The notes beneath the pieces were generated by a model, which ran no database searches, was not told the origin of the DNA, and was given only the letters and a program-made list of their open reading frames with translations. This document shows positions 26,890-34,807 of a stretch of 64,000 nucleotides of DNA, one piece after another (positions within the stretch are counted from its first letter, which is position 1; the number at the start of each line of letters is the position of its first letter). The position numbers were made by a program, and so were the translations under genes. Source of the DNA: Nanobdellota archaeon (GTDB taxonomy: Archaea; Nanobdellota; Nanobdellia; Pacearchaeales; GW2011-AR1); NCBI GenBank assembly GCA_038045945.1, contig JBBSXC010000004.1, forward strand, positions 160,001-224,000, written 5' to 3'.

Positions 26890-27030
26890 CTAGTTCCCCA
26901 AGAAACTAATAAGCCCTATAGCAATCAAGTAAAGGCCAAGAGCCCACCTGAGAAGCTTAGGAACAAAGATAACCAGAAGACCAGCAACGATAGCCAGAAT
27001 TCCAGAGATTGCAAGACTAATAGCAACCAT
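26890..27030 (-). CDS. DUF3096-like small membrane protein (46 aa), paralog
   Basis: Not in ORF track. MVAISLAISGILAIVAGLLVIFVPKLLRWALGLYLIAIGLISFLGN; shares ISGILAI..G...P.LLRWA.G.YLI..G. Confidence 0.8.
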   Translation of the reverse strand: MVAISLAISGILAIVAGLLVIFVPKLLRWALGLYLIAIGLISFLGN

Positions 27031-27031
27031 C

Positions 27032-27211
27032 TTATTTATACGAATAATTCCTAACTAGCTTACTAACACCAATAGCTAAGAACGAAAGAGCAACGACCCA
27101 ATCAACCCATAGAGCTGTAAAGACACTAAGGGCAGAAGAAAGGTAAGCACCCATTCTTAACGTTAATAAAAGTCCAATAAGTGTAACGAGCCAAGCAGTA
27201 AGTTTTGCCAT
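27032..27211 (-). CDS. Small two-TM protein (59 aa)
   Basis: Not in ORF track. MAKLTAWLVTLIGLLL...WVVALSFLAIGVSKLVRNYSYK; GGGGG SD; stop 1 nt before the next ATG. Confidence 0.7.
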   Translation of the reverse strand: MAKLTAWLVTLIGLLLTLRMGAYLSSALSVFTALWVDWVVALSFLAIGVSKLVRNYSYK

Positions 27212-27385
27212 AATTATAACCCCCTTTAGAAAATAGAAAGGAAACGAAATTATATAAACCTATCGTGAAAGGGTAAAGATATGACGATAAAGTATGAGAA
27301 ATCCATTAAAACGAAGATGGCCAAAAGATTAAAAATTACTAACGCAAACTACCTAAAAATTTAACAACATCTGCAAGACCTATCG

Positions 27386-27492
27386 AGGCTGTTTAAGGGT
27401 GTTTAGAGGTGTTTAAACAGCTGTTTGTTGGAATAAAATACAGTTTAGAGGTGTTTAAACAGCTGTTTGTTGGATTCATTCCAACAGATAAT
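27386..27492. repeat. Non-coding iteron-like repeat hub
   Basis: TGTTTA at 27390/27400/27410 (10-bp phase); exact 32-bp direct repeat GTTTAGAGGTGTTTAAACAGCTGTTTGTTGGA at 27401-27432 and 27443-27474; inverted repeat TGTTGGA-N5-TCCAACA at 27468-27486. Confidence 0.9.
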
Positions 27493-27611
27493 TAGCATTC
27501 ACAGAGACGAGAGACAAAATAAGAAAATAAAAGTTAAGAAAGAGCATTTCTGCCGTCGAGAAAGAATCTACTCAGAAAACATTTAAATAGTCTTTTTTGC
27601 AATAAAATAAC

Positions 27612-28235
27612 ATGTTTGATTGGATTTTTGGAAAGAAAAAAGAGGTAGAAAAGGTTAGGACAGACACAAAGAAAGCCTTTGAAGGGGTAAAGGAAGATAT
27701 AAGCAGCATTTCTAAATGGCTTGAACACCTTAAACAGGCAGACGAACAAGGAAAAAAGCGTTTTGATGATATAGATGAGAGATTATCCTCGATAGAATCA
27801 GACTTAAACACTATAAAAAATTTTGCGCTAGGTGGAAAAAACAAACAGCCGTTTAAACAGCAAACAGCTGTTCAAGGCAAACAAACAGTTGTTTATGGTG
27901 TTCAAACAGGTGTTCAAACAGGTGTTCAAACAGGTGAAAGTAGCGAATTATTGGTAAGGAACTTATCAGTTATGGAAAGGGCATTAGTATATGTTTTAAT
28001 GAATAGTGAAATGAAACTGAGCTATGATGACCTGGGAGCGATGCTTGGAAAGACGAGAGCAACTATCAGAGGCCAAATAAACAGCATAAAGCAGAAAAGT
28101 GAGGGAGTATTAGAGGAGATTATAGAGAAAAATGGTAAAAAAAGAGTGTTTATACCTGAGGAAGTAAAGGAAATACTGCTCAAAGACGCAAAAGTGAGAG
28201 TTAAGAAGGACAAAAAAGAGAAGAAAAATGAGTAA
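27612..28235 (+). CDS. Coiled-coil / repeat linker / winged-helix DNA-binding protein (gene A)
   Basis: N-terminal heptads; linker KQTAVQ...GVQTGVQTGVQTG; C-terminal LSVMERALVYVL...LSYDDLGAMLGKTRATIRGQINSIK helix-turn-helix plus wing. Confidence 0.75.
   Translation: MFDWIFGKKKEVEKVRTDTKKAFEGVKEDISSISKWLEHLKQADEQGKKRFDDIDERLSSIESDLNTIKNFALGGKNKQPFKQQTAVQGKQTVVYGVQTGVQTGVQTGESSELLVRNLSVMERALVYVLMNSEMKLSYDDLGAMLGKTRATIRGQINSIKQKSEGVLEEIIEKNGKKRVFIPEEVKEILLKDAKVRVKKDKKEKKNE
27840..27936 (+). repeat. Intragenic repeats in gene A
   Basis: AACAAACAGCCGTTTAAACA (19/20 to reverse complement of hub repeat core), AAACAGCTGTT, AAACAGTTGTTT, then GGTGTTCAAACA x3.3 (27897-27936). Confidence 0.9.
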
Positions 28236-28505
28236 AATGAGCTTAAAAAGATCATAAAGTGAGAGTTAATACGTAAGACATGCTAAAAACATCATGTCTA
28301 GCAGGATGAGAGAAAAAAGATACGTAAAAAGTAAGAGTTGAGCAAAAAATACAGCAAAAAGAGAGAGTAAAGATAAAAAGCCTTAAAAATAACTCTATAA
28401 GGCCTATAAAAACAGAAAGTAGCTATAGCGCTACCATGTTAATCGTTATACAGAATAAAGGAAATTTTAGATTTTTAGTCCTTAAAAGGGTTAAAAATAA
28501 GGTTT

Positions 28506-29333
28506 TTAGAGCTCAATAAGCTTTAAAATGGTGTCTAAGGTAGCTATCTTTTTGAGATCTGGAGATATCCTGAGAATAACTTTCTTATTATTTATCTTTT
28601 CTTTGTCTATGGGTATACCTTTAGCGACGATCTTCCCTATATAGTCCCTTATAGAGCTCTCAGAAAGACCTAATCTTACGGCTATAAGCCTATAATCCGC
28701 ATCTTCGCCCTTTTCCTCCAAGGAATAGAGTAAAGAGAAGACTTGAAACTCCATTGGTGTTAATTGTTTAAACTTGCGCCTAATTTCCTTCTTAATACCG
28801 TCGAGAGTGTCAAGAACCCTCAAGGCTTCATCAAAGTCGTTTGCTTTACTAGTTTGAGAGTTAAGAGAGTATGAAGAGGGTAAAACCAGGCTGGGATTGT
28901 CTGTTGGTCTGTCTGTTGGTCTGTCTGTTGGAACCCCCCTATTTCCACTGGAAATAGCCATATTTTGACCTTTTAGAGCCTCTAAAGAGGGCATATGTGT
29001 TGGAGTTTGTGGTTGAAATGTTGCATTTTGAAGGTTATCTGTTGGATTATGTGTTGGAACGACTGCTACAGGGGGCAAAGGGGCTGTTTTTGCTTCTTGA
29101 GAAACGTTTTTCATCTCTTTTATTGCGCGATCTATTGACTCACTAATGCTTTTTTCAGTGTGGTCTAACTTTTCAGAGAATAATTCTTTTATGTGAGCTA
29201 TAGAAAAAGCTATTTTATCATCAGTTGATATCCTTAAAGAGTTAATCTCTGCGTTTAGTGCGTAAAATTCTTTTGACAGTTGGGTAATATCATCTCTTAC
29301 TTTATCAAACGCCTCTTTGATTCTCGGATCCAT
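28506..29333 (-). CDS. Coiled-coil / repeat linker / winged-helix DNA-binding protein (gene B)
   Basis: N-terminal heptads (EAFDKVRDDI, cf. gene A KAFEGVKEDI); linker ISSGNRGVPTDRPTDRPTD; C-terminal LTPMEFQVFSLLY...DYRLIAVRLGLSESSIRDYIGKIVAKG HTH plus wing. Confidence 0.8.
   Translation of the reverse strand: MDPRIKEAFDKVRDDITQLSKEFYALNAEINSLRISTDDKIAFSIAHIKELFSEKLDHTEKSISESIDRAIKEMKNVSQEAKTAPLPPVAVVPTHNPTDNLQNATFQPQTPTHMPSLEALKGQNMAISSGNRGVPTDRPTDRPTDNPSLVLPSSYSLNSQTSKANDFDEALRVLDTLDGIKKEIRRKFKQLTPMEFQVFSLLYSLEEKGEDADYRLIAVRLGLSESSIRDYIGKIVAKGIPIDKEKINNKKVILRISPDLKKIATLDTILKLIEL
28898..28931 (-). repeat. 12-bp tandem repeat inside gene B
   Basis: TGTCTGTTGGTC x2.8 on + strand; further TGTTGGA copies at 28995-29004, 29035-29046, 29047-29058. 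Confidence 0.9.
28934..28957 (-). promoter_or_regulatory. ORB-like element with G-string inside gene B
   Basis: Minus strand CTATTTCCAGTGGAAATAGGGGGG: 9-bp perfect dyad containing TTCCAGTGGAAA followed by G6. Confidence 0.7.
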
Positions 29334-29387
29334 AATTACTAGTCATTATAAAACGTTAATAAAGATTTGTGGTCTAGAGAAAAGTAT

Positions 29388-29660
29388 TTATGAAGAAACA
29401 TTCTTGTAAGCTTTATGGGCTTTAGACGTCAGCGACCACCTTATTCTACGTATATACACATCACCGTCTGAATTCTTTCTTATCGGTCTCACTAAACCCT
29501 TATTTTCAAGCTCGATTAGCAAGGACTTAATAAACTCTTCATCTCTAGCTTCTTCACGACTTATCTGAGCAGTAAACATCGCTTGAGGATATTTGTGGAA
29601 CAACAACGAAAGAATGTTAGACATAATCTTATCCCTCTTTTCTTTAGAAAGCTTACTCAT
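29388..29660 (-). CDS. Small winged-helix protein (gene C)
   Basis: From ATG 29660 MSKLSKEKRDKIMSNILSLL...FTAQISREEARDEEFIKSLLIELENKGLV...RRIRWSL. Confidence 0.7.
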   Translation of the reverse strand: MSKLSKEKRDKIMSNILSLLFHKYPQAMFTAQISREEARDEEFIKSLLIELENKGLVRPIRKNSDGDVYIRRIRWSLTSKAHKAYKNVSS

Positions 29661-29730
29661 AAAAAGAAGAAAGAATGGGGTATTTTTATACCTTGTGATA
29701 AGAAAAAGACAAATACTTAGCAAAAAATTA

Positions 29731-30246
29731 TTATTCTCTCTTATTAATAACCAAGCCAAGGGTGTTAGAGACCTTCTGGGCTAACTGTCCCCCAGATTCG
29801 GAGAACTTCCAATAAAATAGAACGGGCTTTTCATTTGTTCGCACCATGAATTTTCTTAGTGAAGAGATACTAGCCTTGAGAGCTAAGCCCTTACCTCTAA
29901 AAGGTCCCTTAATTACTGCAACACACATGTAAACAGAATCGTAACTTATACGACTACTTTTTATCAGTTCAAGAAGCTCAGATTCTGTAATAAAATTATT
30001 ACAGAACCGTTCCATGAGTTCTAATGAGCAAGGAAACATATTTACACAACCAATAACTACCCCATCACTCTTAATAATATTAAAAAGTTCAGGAGCATTC
30101 TTTGAAGACCAACTGTCTTTTCCAGGATGAGTCTGAGCTTGATAAGGGTCAGCAGCAGTATTAAAGTACTCTTTGATAAGTGACCGGGCGGAGTCCTGAT
30201 CTTTTATAGAAAGAGCATCATTAGAATCCGAAGAGAAAGTGATCAT
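29731..30246 (-). CDS. Hypothetical protein, GNAT-like
   Basis: VYMCVAVIKGPFRGKGLA resembles the acetyl-CoA-binding motif A. Confidence 0.5.
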   Translation of the reverse strand: MITFSSDSNDALSIKDQDSARSLIKEYFNTAADPYQAQTHPGKDSWSSKNAPELFNIIKSDGVVIGCVNMFPCSLELMERFCNNFITESELLELIKSSRISYDSVYMCVAVIKGPFRGKGLALKASISSLRKFMVRTNEKPVLFYWKFSESGGQLAQKVSNTLGLVINKRE

Positions 30247-30278
30247 TACACAAGAACCAAAGCCATTTTATTTAAACC

Positions 30279-30857
30279 TTACTTTTTTTGCTGTTTATTA
30301 GGATTATTGTTGTGCTTGTTAGGATTTTGATTACTACTCTGTTTGTTTTGAGATTGGCCATTGTTCTGCTTATTAGAATTTTGGTTATTGTTCTGCTTAT
30401 TAGAGTTAGGGGTCTGACTAGCAGAAGGTTGATTACTGGAAACTACAGCCTCATCTACCTGACCTCTAAACTGAGGAATTTGAATATGCTTAGGAAGATT
30501 AAAGTCCTCTTCAAATTGCATAGCCTTAACAGTGCAACGAGCCATAATAAAGTTAAATAAAGGAACCCTAACAAGATCAGGAATTTTCTTATCATTCCAA
30601 CGCTTAAGAATATCAGCAGCTGACTTCTTATCAAGAGCAACAAGAATGTTACCATTAAAAGAAATCTTAGCTATATCCTTATCATAAGAAATTCTAAACT
30701 CAAAACTGAAATTAAGAGCCTCTTCATCTTTAATAAAATCAACCTTGATTTGCTGAATATCCTTAATGTTGATACCATTACTAACATTAAAGTTAGCATT
30801 AGGCTCGGAAAGCTTCTCAGCAAACTGCTTGGTTAAACCAAAACTAATAACTCTCAT
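30279..30857 (-). CDS. Conserved archaeal protein (SecB-like fold suspected) with N/Q-rich repeat tail
   Basis: Beta-rich N-terminal part (F.F.F.ISY....AKI.F.G), helix, LP.HIQIP; tail NSNKQNNNQ-type nonamers. Confidence 0.6.
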   Translation of the reverse strand: MRVISFGLTKQFAEKLSEPNANFNVSNGINIKDIQQIKVDFIKDEEALNFSFEFRISYDKDIAKISFNGNILVALDKKSAADILKRWNDKKIPDLVRVPLFNFIMARCTVKAMQFEEDFNLPKHIQIPQFRGQVDEAVVSSNQPSASQTPNSNKQNNNQNSNKQNNGQSQNKQSSNQNPNKHNNNPNKQQKK

Positions 30858-31033
30858 AAAAGAAAGTAGAAAAGTTGCTTTTTAAACTTTCGGATTCCAC
30901 AGTATATGAATCAAAAAGTATCAAAGCCCAAAAAGAGCAAAAGATTGGAAAAATTAGGAATAAACCTTAAACTAGTTAGAAAACAAAGGGAGAACCTAAT
31001 GAGAAGTACAAATAAAGATTTTAATCAGCATAA

Positions 31034-31294
31034 CTAAATTAAGTCTTCTTCAGAAACAACAACAAAATCGCCAACAGCAATAATGGAGTTGTAAGGAACT
31101 AAGGCTTCCTTAAGTTGAGTTGACTCAAGATTAAGATTCTTAATGTAAGGAGTAGGATCTTTAACAACAAGATGTATTAATTCACCAGTTCTTGTTTCAA
31201 AGGTAATATCCTTAACCATACCAAGCCTCTTACCCTCTTTTGTCACAATCAGTTTACCAAGAATGGCACTGAAAGGTTTCTTATCAATTGTCAT
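31034..31294 (-). CDS. PRC-barrel domain protein (CdpB-like)
   Basis: ILGK.IVT..G..LG.V.DI.F...TG.L, VPY..I.AVGDFVVV. Confidence 0.88.
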   Translation of the reverse strand: MTIDKKPFSAILGKLIVTKEGKRLGMVKDITFETRTGELIHLVVKDPTPYIKNLNLESTQLKEALVPYNSIIAVGDFVVVSEEDLI

Positions 31295-31643
31295 GAAGAG
31301 TACAAATAAAAATTCTTTATAAACTTTTCTACAGTGGATAGATATAATAAACTAAGACAAATCATCGAGTAATAATACAAAAAATCATTGAAAACCAACG
31401 ATAATAAGACATATTTAGCATTCAATGAAAAAACAAAAATAATAACTTTCTAATTTATGAGTAATAATATAACAGTTAAAGAATTAAGAAAGAAAAACAG
31501 ACTAAAATATACAATTAAGAGAAGAAACAAGAGCAAAACATAAAAATAATAAGATTATTATCACTACAATAAGGAAAAGTAGTACCTAAATACTGGTTTT
31601 AGGGCTTAAAGATCCTAAAATTAAGAAGAATAAGACTTATTAG

Positions 31644-31923
31644 ACCCCCACTCCTACGTTTCTTGTGGAAACATTTAAAAAAGAAAAATATTTTATTGGT
31701 TTCTTATTATTCATTTATAAATATTTATATTATATAATATATATAATATAATACTATTAATTACAAAGGTTCTTTTCATATGATTTTTACTCATTAATTC
31801 TCCATAGGAAAATAAGGTTAGCTTTATTTGTTCTTTTTATCGAATACAAACACAAAAACATGAGGTTTTCGATGATAAATTTTGCTACTAGAGAGTTTCC
31901 ATAGGAAATGATGGTGTGAGGGT
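31644..31923. other. Candidate replication origin (oriC): inverted ORBs flanking AT-rich DUE
   Basis: 29-bp imperfect inverted repeat: revcomp(31644-31672) GTTTCCACAAGAAACGTAGGAGTGGGGGT vs 31895-31923 GTTTCCATAGGAAATGATGGTGTGAGGGT (22/29); third copy TCCATAGGAAA at 31801; 41-nt pure A/T run 31713-31753; directly upstream of cdc6. Confidence 0.85.
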
Positions 31924-31992
31924 TATAGTGCTTTTAAGTATCTAAAGTTTTATAAAAGAAATAAAATGATAATATTATAGGTGATAAAAAAG

Positions 31993-33222
31993 ATGGTTGA
32001 AGAACAAAAAGTAGAAGGAAAAATTAACTCAATATTTGACTCATTTACAAAAGAAAGCATATTCAAAAACAAGAGCTTTCTACAAATAAAACATCTGCCT
32101 GAAGATATACTCCATCGAGACGAACAATTACAACAAGTCGCTAGTATCCTAGCACCCGCACTTAGAGGTGAAAGAACAAGTAACCTATTCGTTTATGGAC
32201 AAACAGGCACAGGAAAGACTATTTGCGTCAAGTATATCAGAGACCAATTACTAAAAAAAGCTCAAAGCACAGGAGCACCACTAAGAATTGAATATCTTAA
32301 CTGTAAACTAAAAAAGGTTGCTGATACAGAATACAGGATTTTAGCAGAACTAATAAAAAAATTAGGAGGAGAAGTACCATCAACAGGCCTACCCACAGAC
32401 CAGGTCTATAATAAATTCATTGAGATAATAGAATCAAAAAAACAAACATTCCTACTAATACTTGATGAAATAGACCAAGCGGTTAAAAAGATCTCAAGCG
32501 ACTTCCTATATAACCTAACACGTCTCAACTCAGAACTAGAACAAACAACCGTAAGCATAATAGGTATAAGCAATGACCTAAAATTCTTAGACCTAATCGA
32601 TCCAAGAGTAAGAAGCAGCTTATCAGAAGAAGAAATAATCTTTGCACCTTACAATGCACTACAATTACAAGACATACTAAAACAAAGAGCTGACTCATCA
32701 TTCAAACCAGGAGTACTAAAAGAAGGAGTAATCGCTAAATGCGCAGCTTACGCCGCAAGAGAACACGGAGACGCAAGAAGAGCATTAGACCTATTAAGAA
32801 TATCAGGAGAAATAGCTGAAAGGATGACAGAAGGAACAATAGAAATCAAACACATCGATATGGCAAACGAAAAAATTGATAGGGATAAAATATTAGATAT
32901 AATATCAGCAGCACCAAAACAATTCCAAATAGTATTATTAGCATCAATTGACCTAATAAGCAAAAATAAAGAACAAAACACAAAAATCTTCACTGGAGAT
33001 ATATACTCATTATACCAGGACTTATGTTCTAAGAGCAGAAACGAGATACTAACACAAAGGAGGGTTAGCGACCTAATAGGAGAATTTGATATGTTAGGAC
33101 TAATAAACGCAAGAGTTGTAAGCAACGGAAGACATGGAAGAACAAGAGAAATAAAACTCCTTATACCAGACCAAATATTACCGAGAGCTAGAGAAATAAT
33201 ACAAAATAATTTGAACTTCTAA
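31993..33222 (+). CDS. cdc6: Orc1/Cdc6 replication initiator
   Basis: Walker A GQTGTGKT, Walker B LILDEID, DPRVRSSL, GDARRALDLLR, C-terminal wH; SD AGGTGA before ATG 31993. Confidence 0.97.
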   Translation: MVEEQKVEGKINSIFDSFTKESIFKNKSFLQIKHLPEDILHRDEQLQQVASILAPALRGERTSNLFVYGQTGTGKTICVKYIRDQLLKKAQSTGAPLRIEYLNCKLKKVADTEYRILAELIKKLGGEVPSTGLPTDQVYNKFIEIIESKKQTFLLILDEIDQAVKKISSDFLYNLTRLNSELEQTTVSIIGISNDLKFLDLIDPRVRSSLSEEEIIFAPYNALQLQDILKQRADSSFKPGVLKEGVIAKCAAYAAREHGDARRALDLLRISGEIAERMTEGTIEIKHIDMANEKIDRDKILDIISAAPKQFQIVLLASIDLISKNKEQNTKIFTGDIYSLYQDLCSKSRNEILTQRRVSDLIGEFDMLGLINARVVSNGRHGRTREIKLLIPDQILPRAREIIQNNLNF

Positions 33223-33226
33223 AAAA

Positions 33227-34807
33227 ATGAATAGAGAAATACTAAAATTTTGTTTAGAAAAAGGGTGCTTAATAGATAAAGAAGCATGCGAAATACTAGA
33301 AAACTTTGAAAATATAGAAATAGCTAAAAAAATCATTATTTCACTAACAGACATACTAAAACAAAAAATAATAACTAAATCAAACATAATAAGCCACTCA
33401 AAACAGATAGAAACATTTGTAGAACAACTAGGAGAAAGAACAACCATAGAAAAAATTAAGATAAGCCTAGGAATAAACATTGAATTATCAAAAGAAACAG
33501 TAGAAAAAACATCAGAATTGGAAACGATTAAGAAAGAATCTAAAGTCAGAGTACTAACAAGCCATTCAGCACTTGAAGAAAAAGTGGAAGTTGAAGACTT
33601 CATCAAACACTTCAAAGCAAGATACGGGGCAATAAGAAACATATTACAACAAAGAACAGAACTAGAAAACCTAACCTCAATAAACAAATTAGGTAACAAA
33701 AGACAAAACGTATCAATAATTGGAATGATTTATGACAAAAGACTAACAAAGAACAAAAACCTAATAATAGAAGTAGAAGACCTAACAGGAAGAATAAGCG
33801 TACTAATAAACAAAGACAAAGAAGACCTTAACGAAATAGCAAAAAGAATGCTACCAGATGACATCATAGGAATAAAAGGCGTTGGTGACAAAGAATTCTT
33901 ATTCGCTAACGGAATAATATACCCAGACTCATTCCTAGAAGAAAAACACAGAATAGAAGAAGACGAATCAATAGCATTCATATCAGATGTACATGTAGGA
34001 AGTAAACTATTCCTAAAAGAAAAACTACTAAAATTCATAGAATGGCTTAACGGAAACTTAGGCGGAGAAGAAGAAAGAGAAGAAGCACTAAAAATAAAAT
34101 ACTTGTTTGTAGTAGGAGACACCATTGACGGAGTAGGAGTATACCCAGGACAAGAAAAATTGTTAGAATTAGTAAACATTGAAGACCAATACAAAGAACT
34201 AGCAAGATACCTAAAAATGATAAGAAAAGACATAACAATAATACTCTCACCAGGACAACATGACTGCGTAAGGGTAGCAGAACCACAACCACCAGTAGGA
34301 AAAGACTATGGATACGCACTACACGAAATAGAAAACCTAATACTAGTAAGCAACCCAGCACTAATAGAAGTAGGATTCAAAAAAGACGAAAAAACAAAAC
34401 TTGAAAAAAGGGGCTTCCGAGTACTGATGTACCACGGAGCAAGCTTCCACCTAATAATTAACGAAATAGACGAACTAAGAATGTCAAAAGCACACGACTC
34501 ACCAACAAAAATAATAAAATTCTTACTAAAAAGAAGACACCTATCACCAGTACACTCATTCAACCCATACATACCAAACCCAGAAAAAGACCCAATGGTA
34601 ATAGACATAGTACCAGACATAGTAGCAACAGGAGACTTGCACAAATCAGACATAGACATATACCAAAACATACTAATGATAGCATCAAGCTGCTGGCAAT
34701 CAACAACACCCTTCGAAGAAAAAGTAGGAAACCACCCAGACCCATGCAAAGTACCAGTATTCAACATGAAAACAAGGAGGCTAAAAGTCCTAGACTTCGC
34801 AAACTAA
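33227..34807 (+). CDS. polB: DNA polymerase D small subunit DP1
   Basis: OB fold (EVEDLTG); phosphoesterase motifs SDVHVGS, GD..DGVGVYPGQ, PGQHD, YHG, RRHLSP, SCWQ.TT. Confidence 0.95.
   Translation: MNREILKFCLEKGCLIDKEACEILENFENIEIAKKIIISLTDILKQKIITKSNIISHSKQIETFVEQLGERTTIEKIKISLGINIELSKETVEKTSELETIKKESKVRVLTSHSALEEKVEVEDFIKHFKARYGAIRNILQQRTELENLTSINKLGNKRQNVSIIGMIYDKRLTKNKNLIIEVEDLTGRISVLINKDKEDLNEIAKRMLPDDIIGIKGVGDKEFLFANGIIYPDSFLEEKHRIEEDESIAFISDVHVGSKLFLKEKLLKFIEWLNGNLGGEEEREEALKIKYLFVVGDTIDGVGVYPGQEKLLELVNIEDQYKELARYLKMIRKDITIILSPGQHDCVRVAEPQPPVGKDYGYALHEIENLILVSNPALIEVGFKKDEKTKLEKRGFRVLMYHGASFHLIINEIDELRMSKAHDSPTKIIKFLLKRRHLSPVHSFNPYIPNPEKDPMVIDIVPDIVATGDLHKSDIDIYQNILMIASSCWQSTTPFEEKVGNHPDPCKVPVFNMKTRRLKVLDFAN

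Follow-up and report, generated by a model that had tools for sequence, protein, structure and literature searches.

An origin recognition box conserved as DNA within the linker codons of a winged-helix gene near cdc6 in Nanobdellota

We analyzed a stretch of 64,000 nucleotides (nt), referred to as the window, from a Nanobdellota archaeon (GenBank GCA_038045945.1, contig JBBSXC010000004.1, positions 160,001 to 224,000). An origin recognition box (ORB) that matches the consensus lies in frame within a gene of this window, here called gene B, and was named ORB_B. A first reading of the letters by a model (the original prediction) had pointed to this site as an ORB hidden in a coding sequence. 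Comparison of gene B homologues shows that selection at ORB_B preserves the DNA itself, a conclusion of which we are nearly certain, and that the ORB dictates the linker peptide S-x-G-N-x-G-V of the encoded protein. Judged from its sequence and its place next to cdc6, ORB_B is probably a conserved auxiliary Orc1/Cdc6 site of the chromosomal origin (oriC), overprinted on the linker codons of gene B.

Results

The element and its rarity in the genome

The minus strand at 28957..28898 reads exactly as had been claimed. A perfect 9-bp dyad with one central G (28957-28939) is followed by six G (28939-28934) and, at 28932-28898, by TCCAACAGACAGA and then CCAACAGACAGA and CCAACAGACA. The whole stretch is in frame within the open reading frame 28506..29333 of the minus strand and encodes ISSGNRGVPTDRPTDRPTD. 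ORB_B fits published ORB consensus sequences in both sequence and spacing (TTCCAGTGGAAAT-AGG-GGGGT), with the G-string after the dyad core TTCCAnTGGAAA at the distance that the consensus has. The consensus is GTTCCAGTGGAAATGG-AGGGGTA for Methanomassiliicoccales and CTTCCAGTGGAAACGAAAGGGGT for Archaea as a whole (PMC4153887, Table 2, in the accessible text), and the 3-nt gap from GGAAAT to GGGGT in ORB_B is that of the Methanomassiliicoccales consensus. The possibility that the G-string of ORB_B was wrongly spaced was dropped after this comparison. The spacing TTTCCA-NN-GGAAAT is shared with the ORB upstream of cdc6 at 31895-31908, as predicted. The perfect 9-bp dyad is a local embellishment; arms of 9 bp were found in only 3 of 136 distinct homologous sites, most of which have arms of 4 to 7 bp. 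We also agree with the original prediction that no AT-rich stretch lies beside ORB_B (G+C content of 36% in 28001-29000 as compared to 26% in 31001-32000).

When both strands of the 847,022-base genome of the window (G000) are counted, ORB_B is the only occurrence of the exact 12-mer TTCCAGTGGAAA. A 20-nt pattern covering the core and the G-string, TCCANNGGAAAYNNNGGGGT, gave 1, 2, and 4 matches in the whole genome at 0, 1, and 2 mismatches, respectively, and the reversed pattern, used as control, gave 0, 0, and 0. ORB_B, ORB-a and the cdc6-proximal ORB account for three of the four matches and cluster around oriC, no more than 3 kb apart. Such a genome scan had been proposed to gauge chance occurrence, and its outcome supports the prediction. 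The 12-mer core alone at 2 mismatches was not enriched in the window (9 found vs. 6.4 expected), thus the weight rests on the exact match plus the G-string.

Conservation of DNA rather than peptide

Gene B homologues were found in 35 of 41 related genomes searched. A profile search of class genomes that are at least 90% complete found the gene in 131 of 201; outside the window's own order, 83 of 151 class genomes had matches. The loci examined came from 78 different genomes: the 35 relatives, 23 further genomes among the 30 best-scoring profile places (the remainder were already in the set), and 20 picked from the 83 out-of-order genomes for good, mostly full-length matches. Two of these loci are cut by contig ends, leaving 76 untruncated loci from many families. 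A second sample of 80 loci was drawn from a species collection, with record titles of Candidatus Pacearchaeota, Woesearchaeota or Nanoarchaeota, and overlaps the first genome set. Codons were compared in an alignment of 32 gene B sequences.

In the 76 untruncated loci, the 20-nt pattern, TCCAnnGGAAAYnnnGGGGT, is present exactly in 65, with one mismatch in 9, and with two mismatches in 2 (G147 and G196). The forward ORB was found at no more than one mismatch in 78 loci of the second sample; in the remaining two (L112 and L139) the forward copy is degenerate and a good inverted ORB lies about 60 nt downstream. The element remains invariant while the gene B proteins drop to 27-35% identity. Its reading frame is constant across homologues and yields x-S-x-G-N-x-G-V.

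The original prediction had proposed the silent positions of gene B homologues as a test, with a conserved peptide in scrambled codons as the outcome that would speak against it. The outcome supports the prediction: the core and GGGG are kept at synonymous sites. The Ser codon of the ORB is TCC in 32/32 sequences (background use 0.17), the first Gly codon is GGA in 32/32, and the second is GGG in 32/32 (background 0.25). The Val codon is GTT in 31/31, Thr is ACA in 28/28, and Asp is GAC in 23/23. Invariant residues of the winged helix are spread over several codons, the top codon accounting for 12/32 at Leu223 and 14/32 at Arg229. Pairs of sequences with the same residue used the same codon in 95.4% of cases at five ORB codons and in 99.6% at the next three codons, as compared to 42.8% in the winged helix and 52.1% in the N-terminal helix (95% vs. 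43% for the ORB and the winged helix). At the degenerate DNA positions the encoded residues are free to vary and include S, T, I, N or K at one and R, E, D, Q, K or G at the other.

Further copies of the ORB occur in the gene B linker in 8 of 35 loci. In G018, G017 and G004 a second copy lies 43 nt upstream in a different frame of the same open reading frame, and five genomes have an inverted copy within it. In the linkers with two ORBs (L002, L014, L035, L019, L025, L031-L033, L112 and L139), the copies are either direct and 43 nt apart or inverted and 57-75 nt apart; in L112 and L139 the inverted ORB is the sole intact copy.

The frozen silent codons, the freely varying residues at degenerate positions, and the copies in another frame and on the opposite strand exclude the reading that the peptide alone is conserved. 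A broader form of this explanation places the constraint on the mRNA, as a hairpin or small RNA, or on the peptide S-x-G-N-x-G-V. The dyad could fold in the transcript, and the peptide is invariant at S, G, N, and G. Rfam at permissive thresholds gave no match in 27000-33000, and in 136 distinct sites the hairpin showed no covariation, pairing outside the invariant core only as the make-up of the columns predicts. Synonymous sites are frozen, yet conserved winged-helix residues use many codons, and residues at the degenerate positions switch between opposite charges. Together with the copies on the other strand and in another frame, these results leave this explanation almost no weight.

Linkage of ORB_B to cdc6 and oriC

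The region upstream of cdc6 (31300-31980) looks like a classical archaeal origin, in which ORB-a and ORB-b are inverted around an AT-rich element (Table 1). The gene for the small subunit of DNA polymerase D (dp1, 33227-34807) follows cdc6. ORB_B is outside this intergenic origin, 2.7 kb from ORB-a and 3.0 kb from the start of cdc6; it is single, has the orientation of ORB-a, and lies in DNA of 36% G+C. GC skew gave no clear origin mark in the window, and the strand bias of long open reading frames on either side of the origin is weak.

The link between ORB_B and the origin is conserved. In the 41 relatives, the pattern at no more than one mismatch was found in 33 genomes, about twice in each, with a match in gene B and, as a rule, a second one shortly upstream of cdc6; the reversed control gave a single match across the 41 genomes together. 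In 24/24 genomes with both genes on the same contig, gene B and cdc6 are on opposite strands with gene B upstream, at 1.65-14.6 kb. In the 80-locus sample, all 47 loci that hold both the ORB and cdc6 have this divergent arrangement; the distance of ORB_B to the start of cdc6 is 1.68-9.6 kb and, in 41 loci, does not exceed 3.2 kb. In the window's own order this arrangement held wherever the two genes were found together, mostly at a distance of about 2 kb. Four of the 80 loci with the full 10-kb upstream flank have no cdc6 in that flank. Counted from the start of cdc6, the array consists of one or two boxes on the cdc6 strand at about +5 to +200, an AT-rich stretch, a box on the other strand at about +280 to +630, and then ORB_B in the orientation of the latter. 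In these 47 loci (808 kb), 153 of 163 pattern matches at no more than two mismatches fall between the cdc6 start and ORB_B. The linkage is also kept in other orders (5.9 kb in G309, 4.6 kb in G270, 8 kb in G063, and 14 kb in G298). In a single exception, G196, gene B shares the strand of cdc6 and lies 14.5 kb downstream of it. The G196 dyad (L068, G196:C1:286000-287800) has decayed from GGAAAT to AGCAAT and the G-string remains.

Four small genes on the minus strand separate gene B from oriC in the window (29388-31294). They encode an HTH_69 winged-helix protein, two proteins without a family, one of which has an N/Q-rich tail, and a PRC-barrel protein that adjoins oriC. The interval is about 1 kb in most relatives, and part of 29388-31294 looks like an insertion in G000.

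ORB_B had also been proposed to be an origin in its own right, in which a single ORB loads one helicase and replication is unidirectional. In most of these genomes no other site fits the ORB consensus as well, and some relatives have two linker ORBs, direct or inverted. We do not favor this proposal and consider it very improbable, because no unwinding element lies beside ORB_B and every relative examined has a full inverted array with an AT-rich center at a constant position upstream of cdc6. AT-richness is not a consistent property of the tract that follows the G-string, (ACAG)n being 50% A+T, and the inverted linker pairs have their G-strings face to face, opposite to oriC. A complete canonical origin is present 1.2-2.7 kb away.

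The position of ORB_B in the gene suggested another role, replication-coupled control of gene B. Orc1 bound within the gene, between the dimerization helix and the DNA-binding domain, would act as a roadblock to transcription; full-length gene B would then be made mainly when the outgoing fork sweeps Orc1 off, and the ORB would serve gene regulation. The ORB is always in the linker between the N-terminal helix and the winged helix, and gene B is transcribed away from the nearby origin, co-directionally with the outgoing fork. In G196, where gene B is displaced from its divergent upstream place, the dyad carries two mismatches in GGAAAT. Moreover, Cdc6 binding at the Pyrococcus oriC is constitutive according to the accessible text of PMC1904270. 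However, archaeal repressor sites normally overlap promoters, G196 is a single case, and the flanking boxes and repeats would be left unexplained. We regard a roadblock as unlikely.

The gene B protein

In an AlphaFold2 model built with 32 homologues, gene B residues 3-81 form a long helix, residues 82-165 are structureless (predicted local distance difference test score of about 50), and residues 166-256 form a helix followed by a winged helix. The ORB codons encode residues 127-135, inside the disordered part. Such a linker would tolerate the ORB because its residues are otherwise free. Foldseek aligned the C-terminal domain with MarR-family regulators (best E 3.6e-4); the whole-chain template modelling score was low because only this domain aligns. 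Pfam, NCBIfam, and PDB sequence searches with gene B gave only sub-threshold helix-turn-helix or coiled-coil matches.

MarR dimers read palindromes. The dyad might thus be an operator for the MarR-like product of gene B, or of its neighbor gene A, with the likeness to an ORB arising by convergence or through competition with Orc1. The MarR-like fold of the C-terminal domain and the location of the site within the protein's own gene fit this idea, as does the linker of gene A with its ACA-SS-TGT palindromes, since self-encoded sites seem to be a trait of the gene pair. On the other hand, the G-string at consensus spacing makes the element asymmetric, which is what a monomeric polar Orc1 site would show. 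Its motif also occurs on either side of the AT-rich element upstream of cdc6, equals the consensus derived from other archaeal phyla (PMC4153887, accessible text), and is invariant while the gene B proteins are at 27-35% identity. An operator is therefore quite improbable. The original prediction had also suggested that Orc1 and the winged-helix protein occupy the site together, an idea for which the analysis gave no support.

Metagenome contigs over the site

Contigs from four metagenome runs of the habitat, all from one study (X1-X4), were compared with 28300-29500; the two best-matching runs are possibly where the window came from and do not count as independent of it. Summed contig depth rose 5- to 10-fold over 28915-28955 only. 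Numerous short contigs, from other organisms, align to 28919-28954 alone and differ on either flank, as expected if co-occurring relatives share a 36-nt island of identity. Assembly graphs also break at the ORB, with contigs ending or starting at 28925-28954. Both the multiplied depth and the breaks would arise because several co-occurring genomes share the 36-nt element, and such breaks may explain why gene B of some relatives sits at contig ends.

Short boxes and tandem repeats around ORB_B

The original prediction had described 12-bp iterons abutting the ORB. Tandem 12-nt units do follow the G-string in G000. The unit itself is not conserved, being lineage-variable at 4-12 nt, and only a 7-nt box is kept within the order; the tract thus lacks the conserved unit sequence and spacing of iterons. 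Most members of the window's family have an (ACAG)n microsatellite there, or a 12-nt unit derived from it, and in relatives (ACAG)n reaches about 10 units. At the level of the order, relatives carry 11-nt units that are translated in each of the three frames; in other orders the tract is built of (AATC)n, (ATTC)n, (CAAA)n, (CACT)n or of units of 10 to 12 nt, so that the period is 4, 8, 10, 11, or 12 nt depending on the lineage. Tandem periodicity is typically 0.7-1.0 in the 90 nt downstream of the ORB as compared to 0.45-0.6 upstream. A phase-variable contingency locus would have a long, pure tetranucleotide run in its reading frame, with unit numbers that differ within a population. No tetranucleotide run of at least four units occurs anywhere in G000. 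Repeat-length insertions or deletions were not seen in the metagenome contigs over the site, which cannot reveal rare variants.

The 7-nt box, T[CT]C[AG]ACA, directly follows GGGGT. The 27-nt pattern of ORB plus box was found in 44/47 genomes of the family and 5/5 other genomes of the order, and in 0/248 genomes of other orders; the reversed control gave 0. Boxes flank the ORB on both sides. In the 150 nt upstream there are 2.97 per locus, against a background of 0.06. On the two sides together, G000 has boxes at 29058, 29046, 29004, 28932, 28920, and 28908. The strand split is 321 on the coding strand to 6 on the other, and 280 of the 321 are in one frame. The forms are TCCAACA (214) and TTCGACA (85), with TTCAACA (19) and TCCGACA (3) as intermediates. 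The boxes share TTCC with mini-ORBs solely in the TCCAACA form. The boxes could be binding sites, half sites resembling mini-ORBs, or slippage products tolerated by the linker.

Gene A and the spacer

Gene A has the same architecture as gene B and is its convergent partner in 77/80 loci. Its linker (27835-27936) carries tandem 12-nt units with the palindrome ACA-SS-TGT every 12 nt and encodes VQTxVQTx, in which x is A, G, P or R through GCT, GGT, CCT or CGT, which covers all four S-S dinucleotides. Every Gln codon is CAA and every Thr codon is ACA. ACA-SS-TGT is kept at the DNA level, other orders included, and the sole exact tandem repeat of G000 with at least three units and a period of 10-12 nt is in gene A. 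On this sequence pattern, the gene A linker is a second DNA-level element written into a linker. The gene A palindromes do not co-vary with the gene B repeats; lineages with (CAAA)n, (AATC)n or (CACT)n in gene B still keep ACA-SS-TGT. Between the 3' ends of the two genes, the spacer (28236-28505) is purine-rich on the plus strand, and repeats in this region include AAAGTGAGAGTTAA (28182-28204 and 28247-28269) and AGAGAGAGTAAAGATAA.

Table 1. Coordinates of ORB_B, the origin region and neighboring features in the window
Feature	Position	Strand	Remarks
ORB_B core TCCAGTGGAAATAGGGGGGT (dyad and G-string)	28933..28952	-	encodes S-S-G-N-R-G-V in the gene B linker
Perfect 9-bp dyad CTATTTCCA-G-TGGAAATAG	28939..28957	-	locally extends the conserved dyad of 5 to 7 bp
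Box TCCAACA directly after the G-string, then about 2.8 tandem 12-nt units (CCAACAGACAGA)	28898..28932	-	encodes PTDR repeats
Three more TCCAACA boxes upstream of the ORB (at 29058, 29046, 29004)	28994..29058	- (coding strand)	
Gene B, 275 aa	28506..29333	-	homologues in 35/41 relatives and 131/201 class genomes
Gene A, convergent neighbor of the same architecture	27612..28235	+	linker 27897-27936: three 12-nt units GGTGTTCAAACA
ORB-a of oriC (TCCACAAGAAACGTAGGAGT then GGGGG)	31650..31669	-	same orientation as ORB_B; place and orientation kept in relatives
AT-rich presumed unwinding element between inverted ORBs	31676..31795		26% G+C in 31001-32000
Degenerate ORB-b (TCCATAGGAAAATAAGGTTA)	31801..31820	+	3 mismatches to the pattern; read by eye; place fits the ORB-b class of relatives
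ORB adjoining the cdc6 start (TCCATAGGAAATGATGGTGT)	31898..31917	+	inverted relative to ORB-a and ORB_B
orc1/cdc6 gene	31981..33222	+	Pfam Cdc6_lid 8.5e-25, Cdc6_C 5.8e-23

Discussion

The predicted binder of ORB_B is Orc1/Cdc6, in which we have high confidence because the element is identical with the pan-archaeal consensus and with the boxes of its own origin, and because it has the asymmetry typical of a monomeric polar site. We propose that one Orc1/Cdc6 monomer would bind ORB_B with the polarity fixed as in ORB-a, the G-string facing away from the origin. The chromosomal origin would be the inverted ORB array around the AT-rich element directly upstream of cdc6, and ORB_B would serve it as an auxiliary, distal initiator site. 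By comparison with the second ORB cluster of the Thermococcales, in dp1, ORB_B may belong to a higher-order origin complex or hold a reservoir of initiator, a suggestion to which we give slightly less than even weight. The site may instead act as a reservoir or a boundary, or as a roadblock to the transcription of gene B that is coupled to replication.

Several points weigh against this proposal. Orc1 as the predicted binder rests on motif identity, and the dimeric MarR-like winged helix of gene B could in principle read the dyad. The distance from ORB_B to oriC varies from 1.65 to about 15 kb, and orientation is not absolute, the good copy being inverted in L112 and L139. The variable distance and the two inverted cases argue against a strict geometric role in origin melting. 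According to the accessible text of PMC1904270, a lone 13-bp mini-ORB outside oriC is unbound in vivo in Pyrococcus, thus the presence of a motif is by itself no proof of occupancy. The conserved linkage to cdc6 may be inherited synteny rather than function, related genomes are non-independent samples, and our two sets of loci overlap. Finally, an Orc1 site leaves the adjacent tandem repeats and T[CT]C[AG]ACA boxes unexplained.

The closest precedent is the cluster of initiator boxes in dp1 of the Thermococcales (Pyrococcus and Thermococcus), which likewise lies inside a gene flanking oriC and is found order-wide. As the accessible text of Matsunaga et al. (2007, PMC1904270) describes, this intragenic cluster is about 1.5 kb from oriC in Pyrococcus and is bound by Cdc6/Orc1 in vivo as well as in vitro, and a single full ORB is bound with high affinity. 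Looping between the clusters was proposed there and likened to the two DnaA-box clusters around dnaA in Bacillus subtilis. ORB_B resembles the dp1 cluster in being an ORB within a coding sequence beside oriC that is kept across related genera. It differs in its host, the coiled-coil/MarR-like winged-helix gene B, which is upstream of cdc6 on the other side of oriC. The dp1 gene of the window (33227-34807) has no match to the 12-nt ORB core at up to two mismatches, and no consistent dp1 cluster was found across the 47 loci, in which only 10 of 163 matches are outside the stretch from cdc6 to ORB_B. The Thermococcales cluster has one ORB and several mini-ORBs; here there is usually one full ORB, as in G000, with a second copy in 8 of 35 loci and with flanking boxes that share TTCC with mini-ORBs in the TCCAACA form. 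ORB_B is also in a disordered linker whose peptide it dictates, accompanied by boxes on the same strand and by short tandem repeats, and its binding is predicted.

Other archaeal ORBs share the motif and differ in setting. The ORBs of archaeal oriC1 have the same dyad and a G-string at the same consensus spacing as ORB_B, and in Sulfolobus oriC1 each of ORB1-3 is bound by one monomer with a defined polarity (PMC12141716, accessible text). Canonical ORBs are intergenic inverted pairs that flank an AT-rich unwinding element, whereas ORB_B is intragenic, without such an element, and 1.2-15 kb outside the pair. The isolated ORBs of Methanomassiliicoccales are, like ORB_B, consensus ORBs without a partner. 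As far as the accessible text of PMC4153887 goes, they are hundreds of kb from the origin and downstream of genes, and their conservation is not demonstrated; ORB_B is origin-linked and class-wide.

Bipartite origins of bacteria also have initiator or partition sites near the origin that act at a distance, such as the DnaA boxes around dnaA and parS in spo0J/parB. The parS site inside spo0J/parB is near oriC. The proteins and the domain of life are different, and the analogy is one of logic only.

An initiator box inside a gene beside oriC is thus known. New are the other host gene and the other side of oriC, the single full ORB that dictates a linker peptide, its class-wide distribution, and the oriented box array with variable repeats. 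To our knowledge, DPANN origins have not been studied experimentally. Our literature searches found no paper linking origin recognition boxes to Pacearchaeota, Woesearchaeota, Nanoarchaeota or Nanobdellota, and none describing ORB_B among those on DPANN with replication origin and Orc1. A search for archaeal Orc1 sites outside origins mapped by chromatin immunoprecipitation gave nothing useful beyond PMC1904270. ORB, origin recognition, and oriC are not mentioned in the accessible part of a Nanobdellota preprint (10.64898/2026.05.13.725050).

A more speculative view, which we think improbable, takes in both linkers as translated regulatory DNA. The Orc1 box in its T[CT]C[AG]ACA array and the 12-nt-phased ACA-SS-TGT array would form, with the purine-rich spacer, an origin-proximal nucleoprotein centre, where Orc1 and both coiled-coil MarR-like proteins sit on sites in their own genes. 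If true, production of proteins that organize, license or segregate the origin would be tied to initiator occupancy or to the first fork passing through.

ORB_B is a sharply defined, class-wide candidate initiator site outside the intergenic origin, and it generalizes the intragenic sites of the Thermococcales. It is also an unusually clean case of dual coding, in which a cis-acting DNA signal sets the sequence of a disordered linker. Conserved 'peptide motifs' annotated in linkers may therefore really be DNA sites, and origin-finding tools that scan intergenic DNA only would be affected. For this class of archaea, the finding makes two uncharacterized DNA-binding proteins, the products of gene A and gene B, candidate origin-associated factors.

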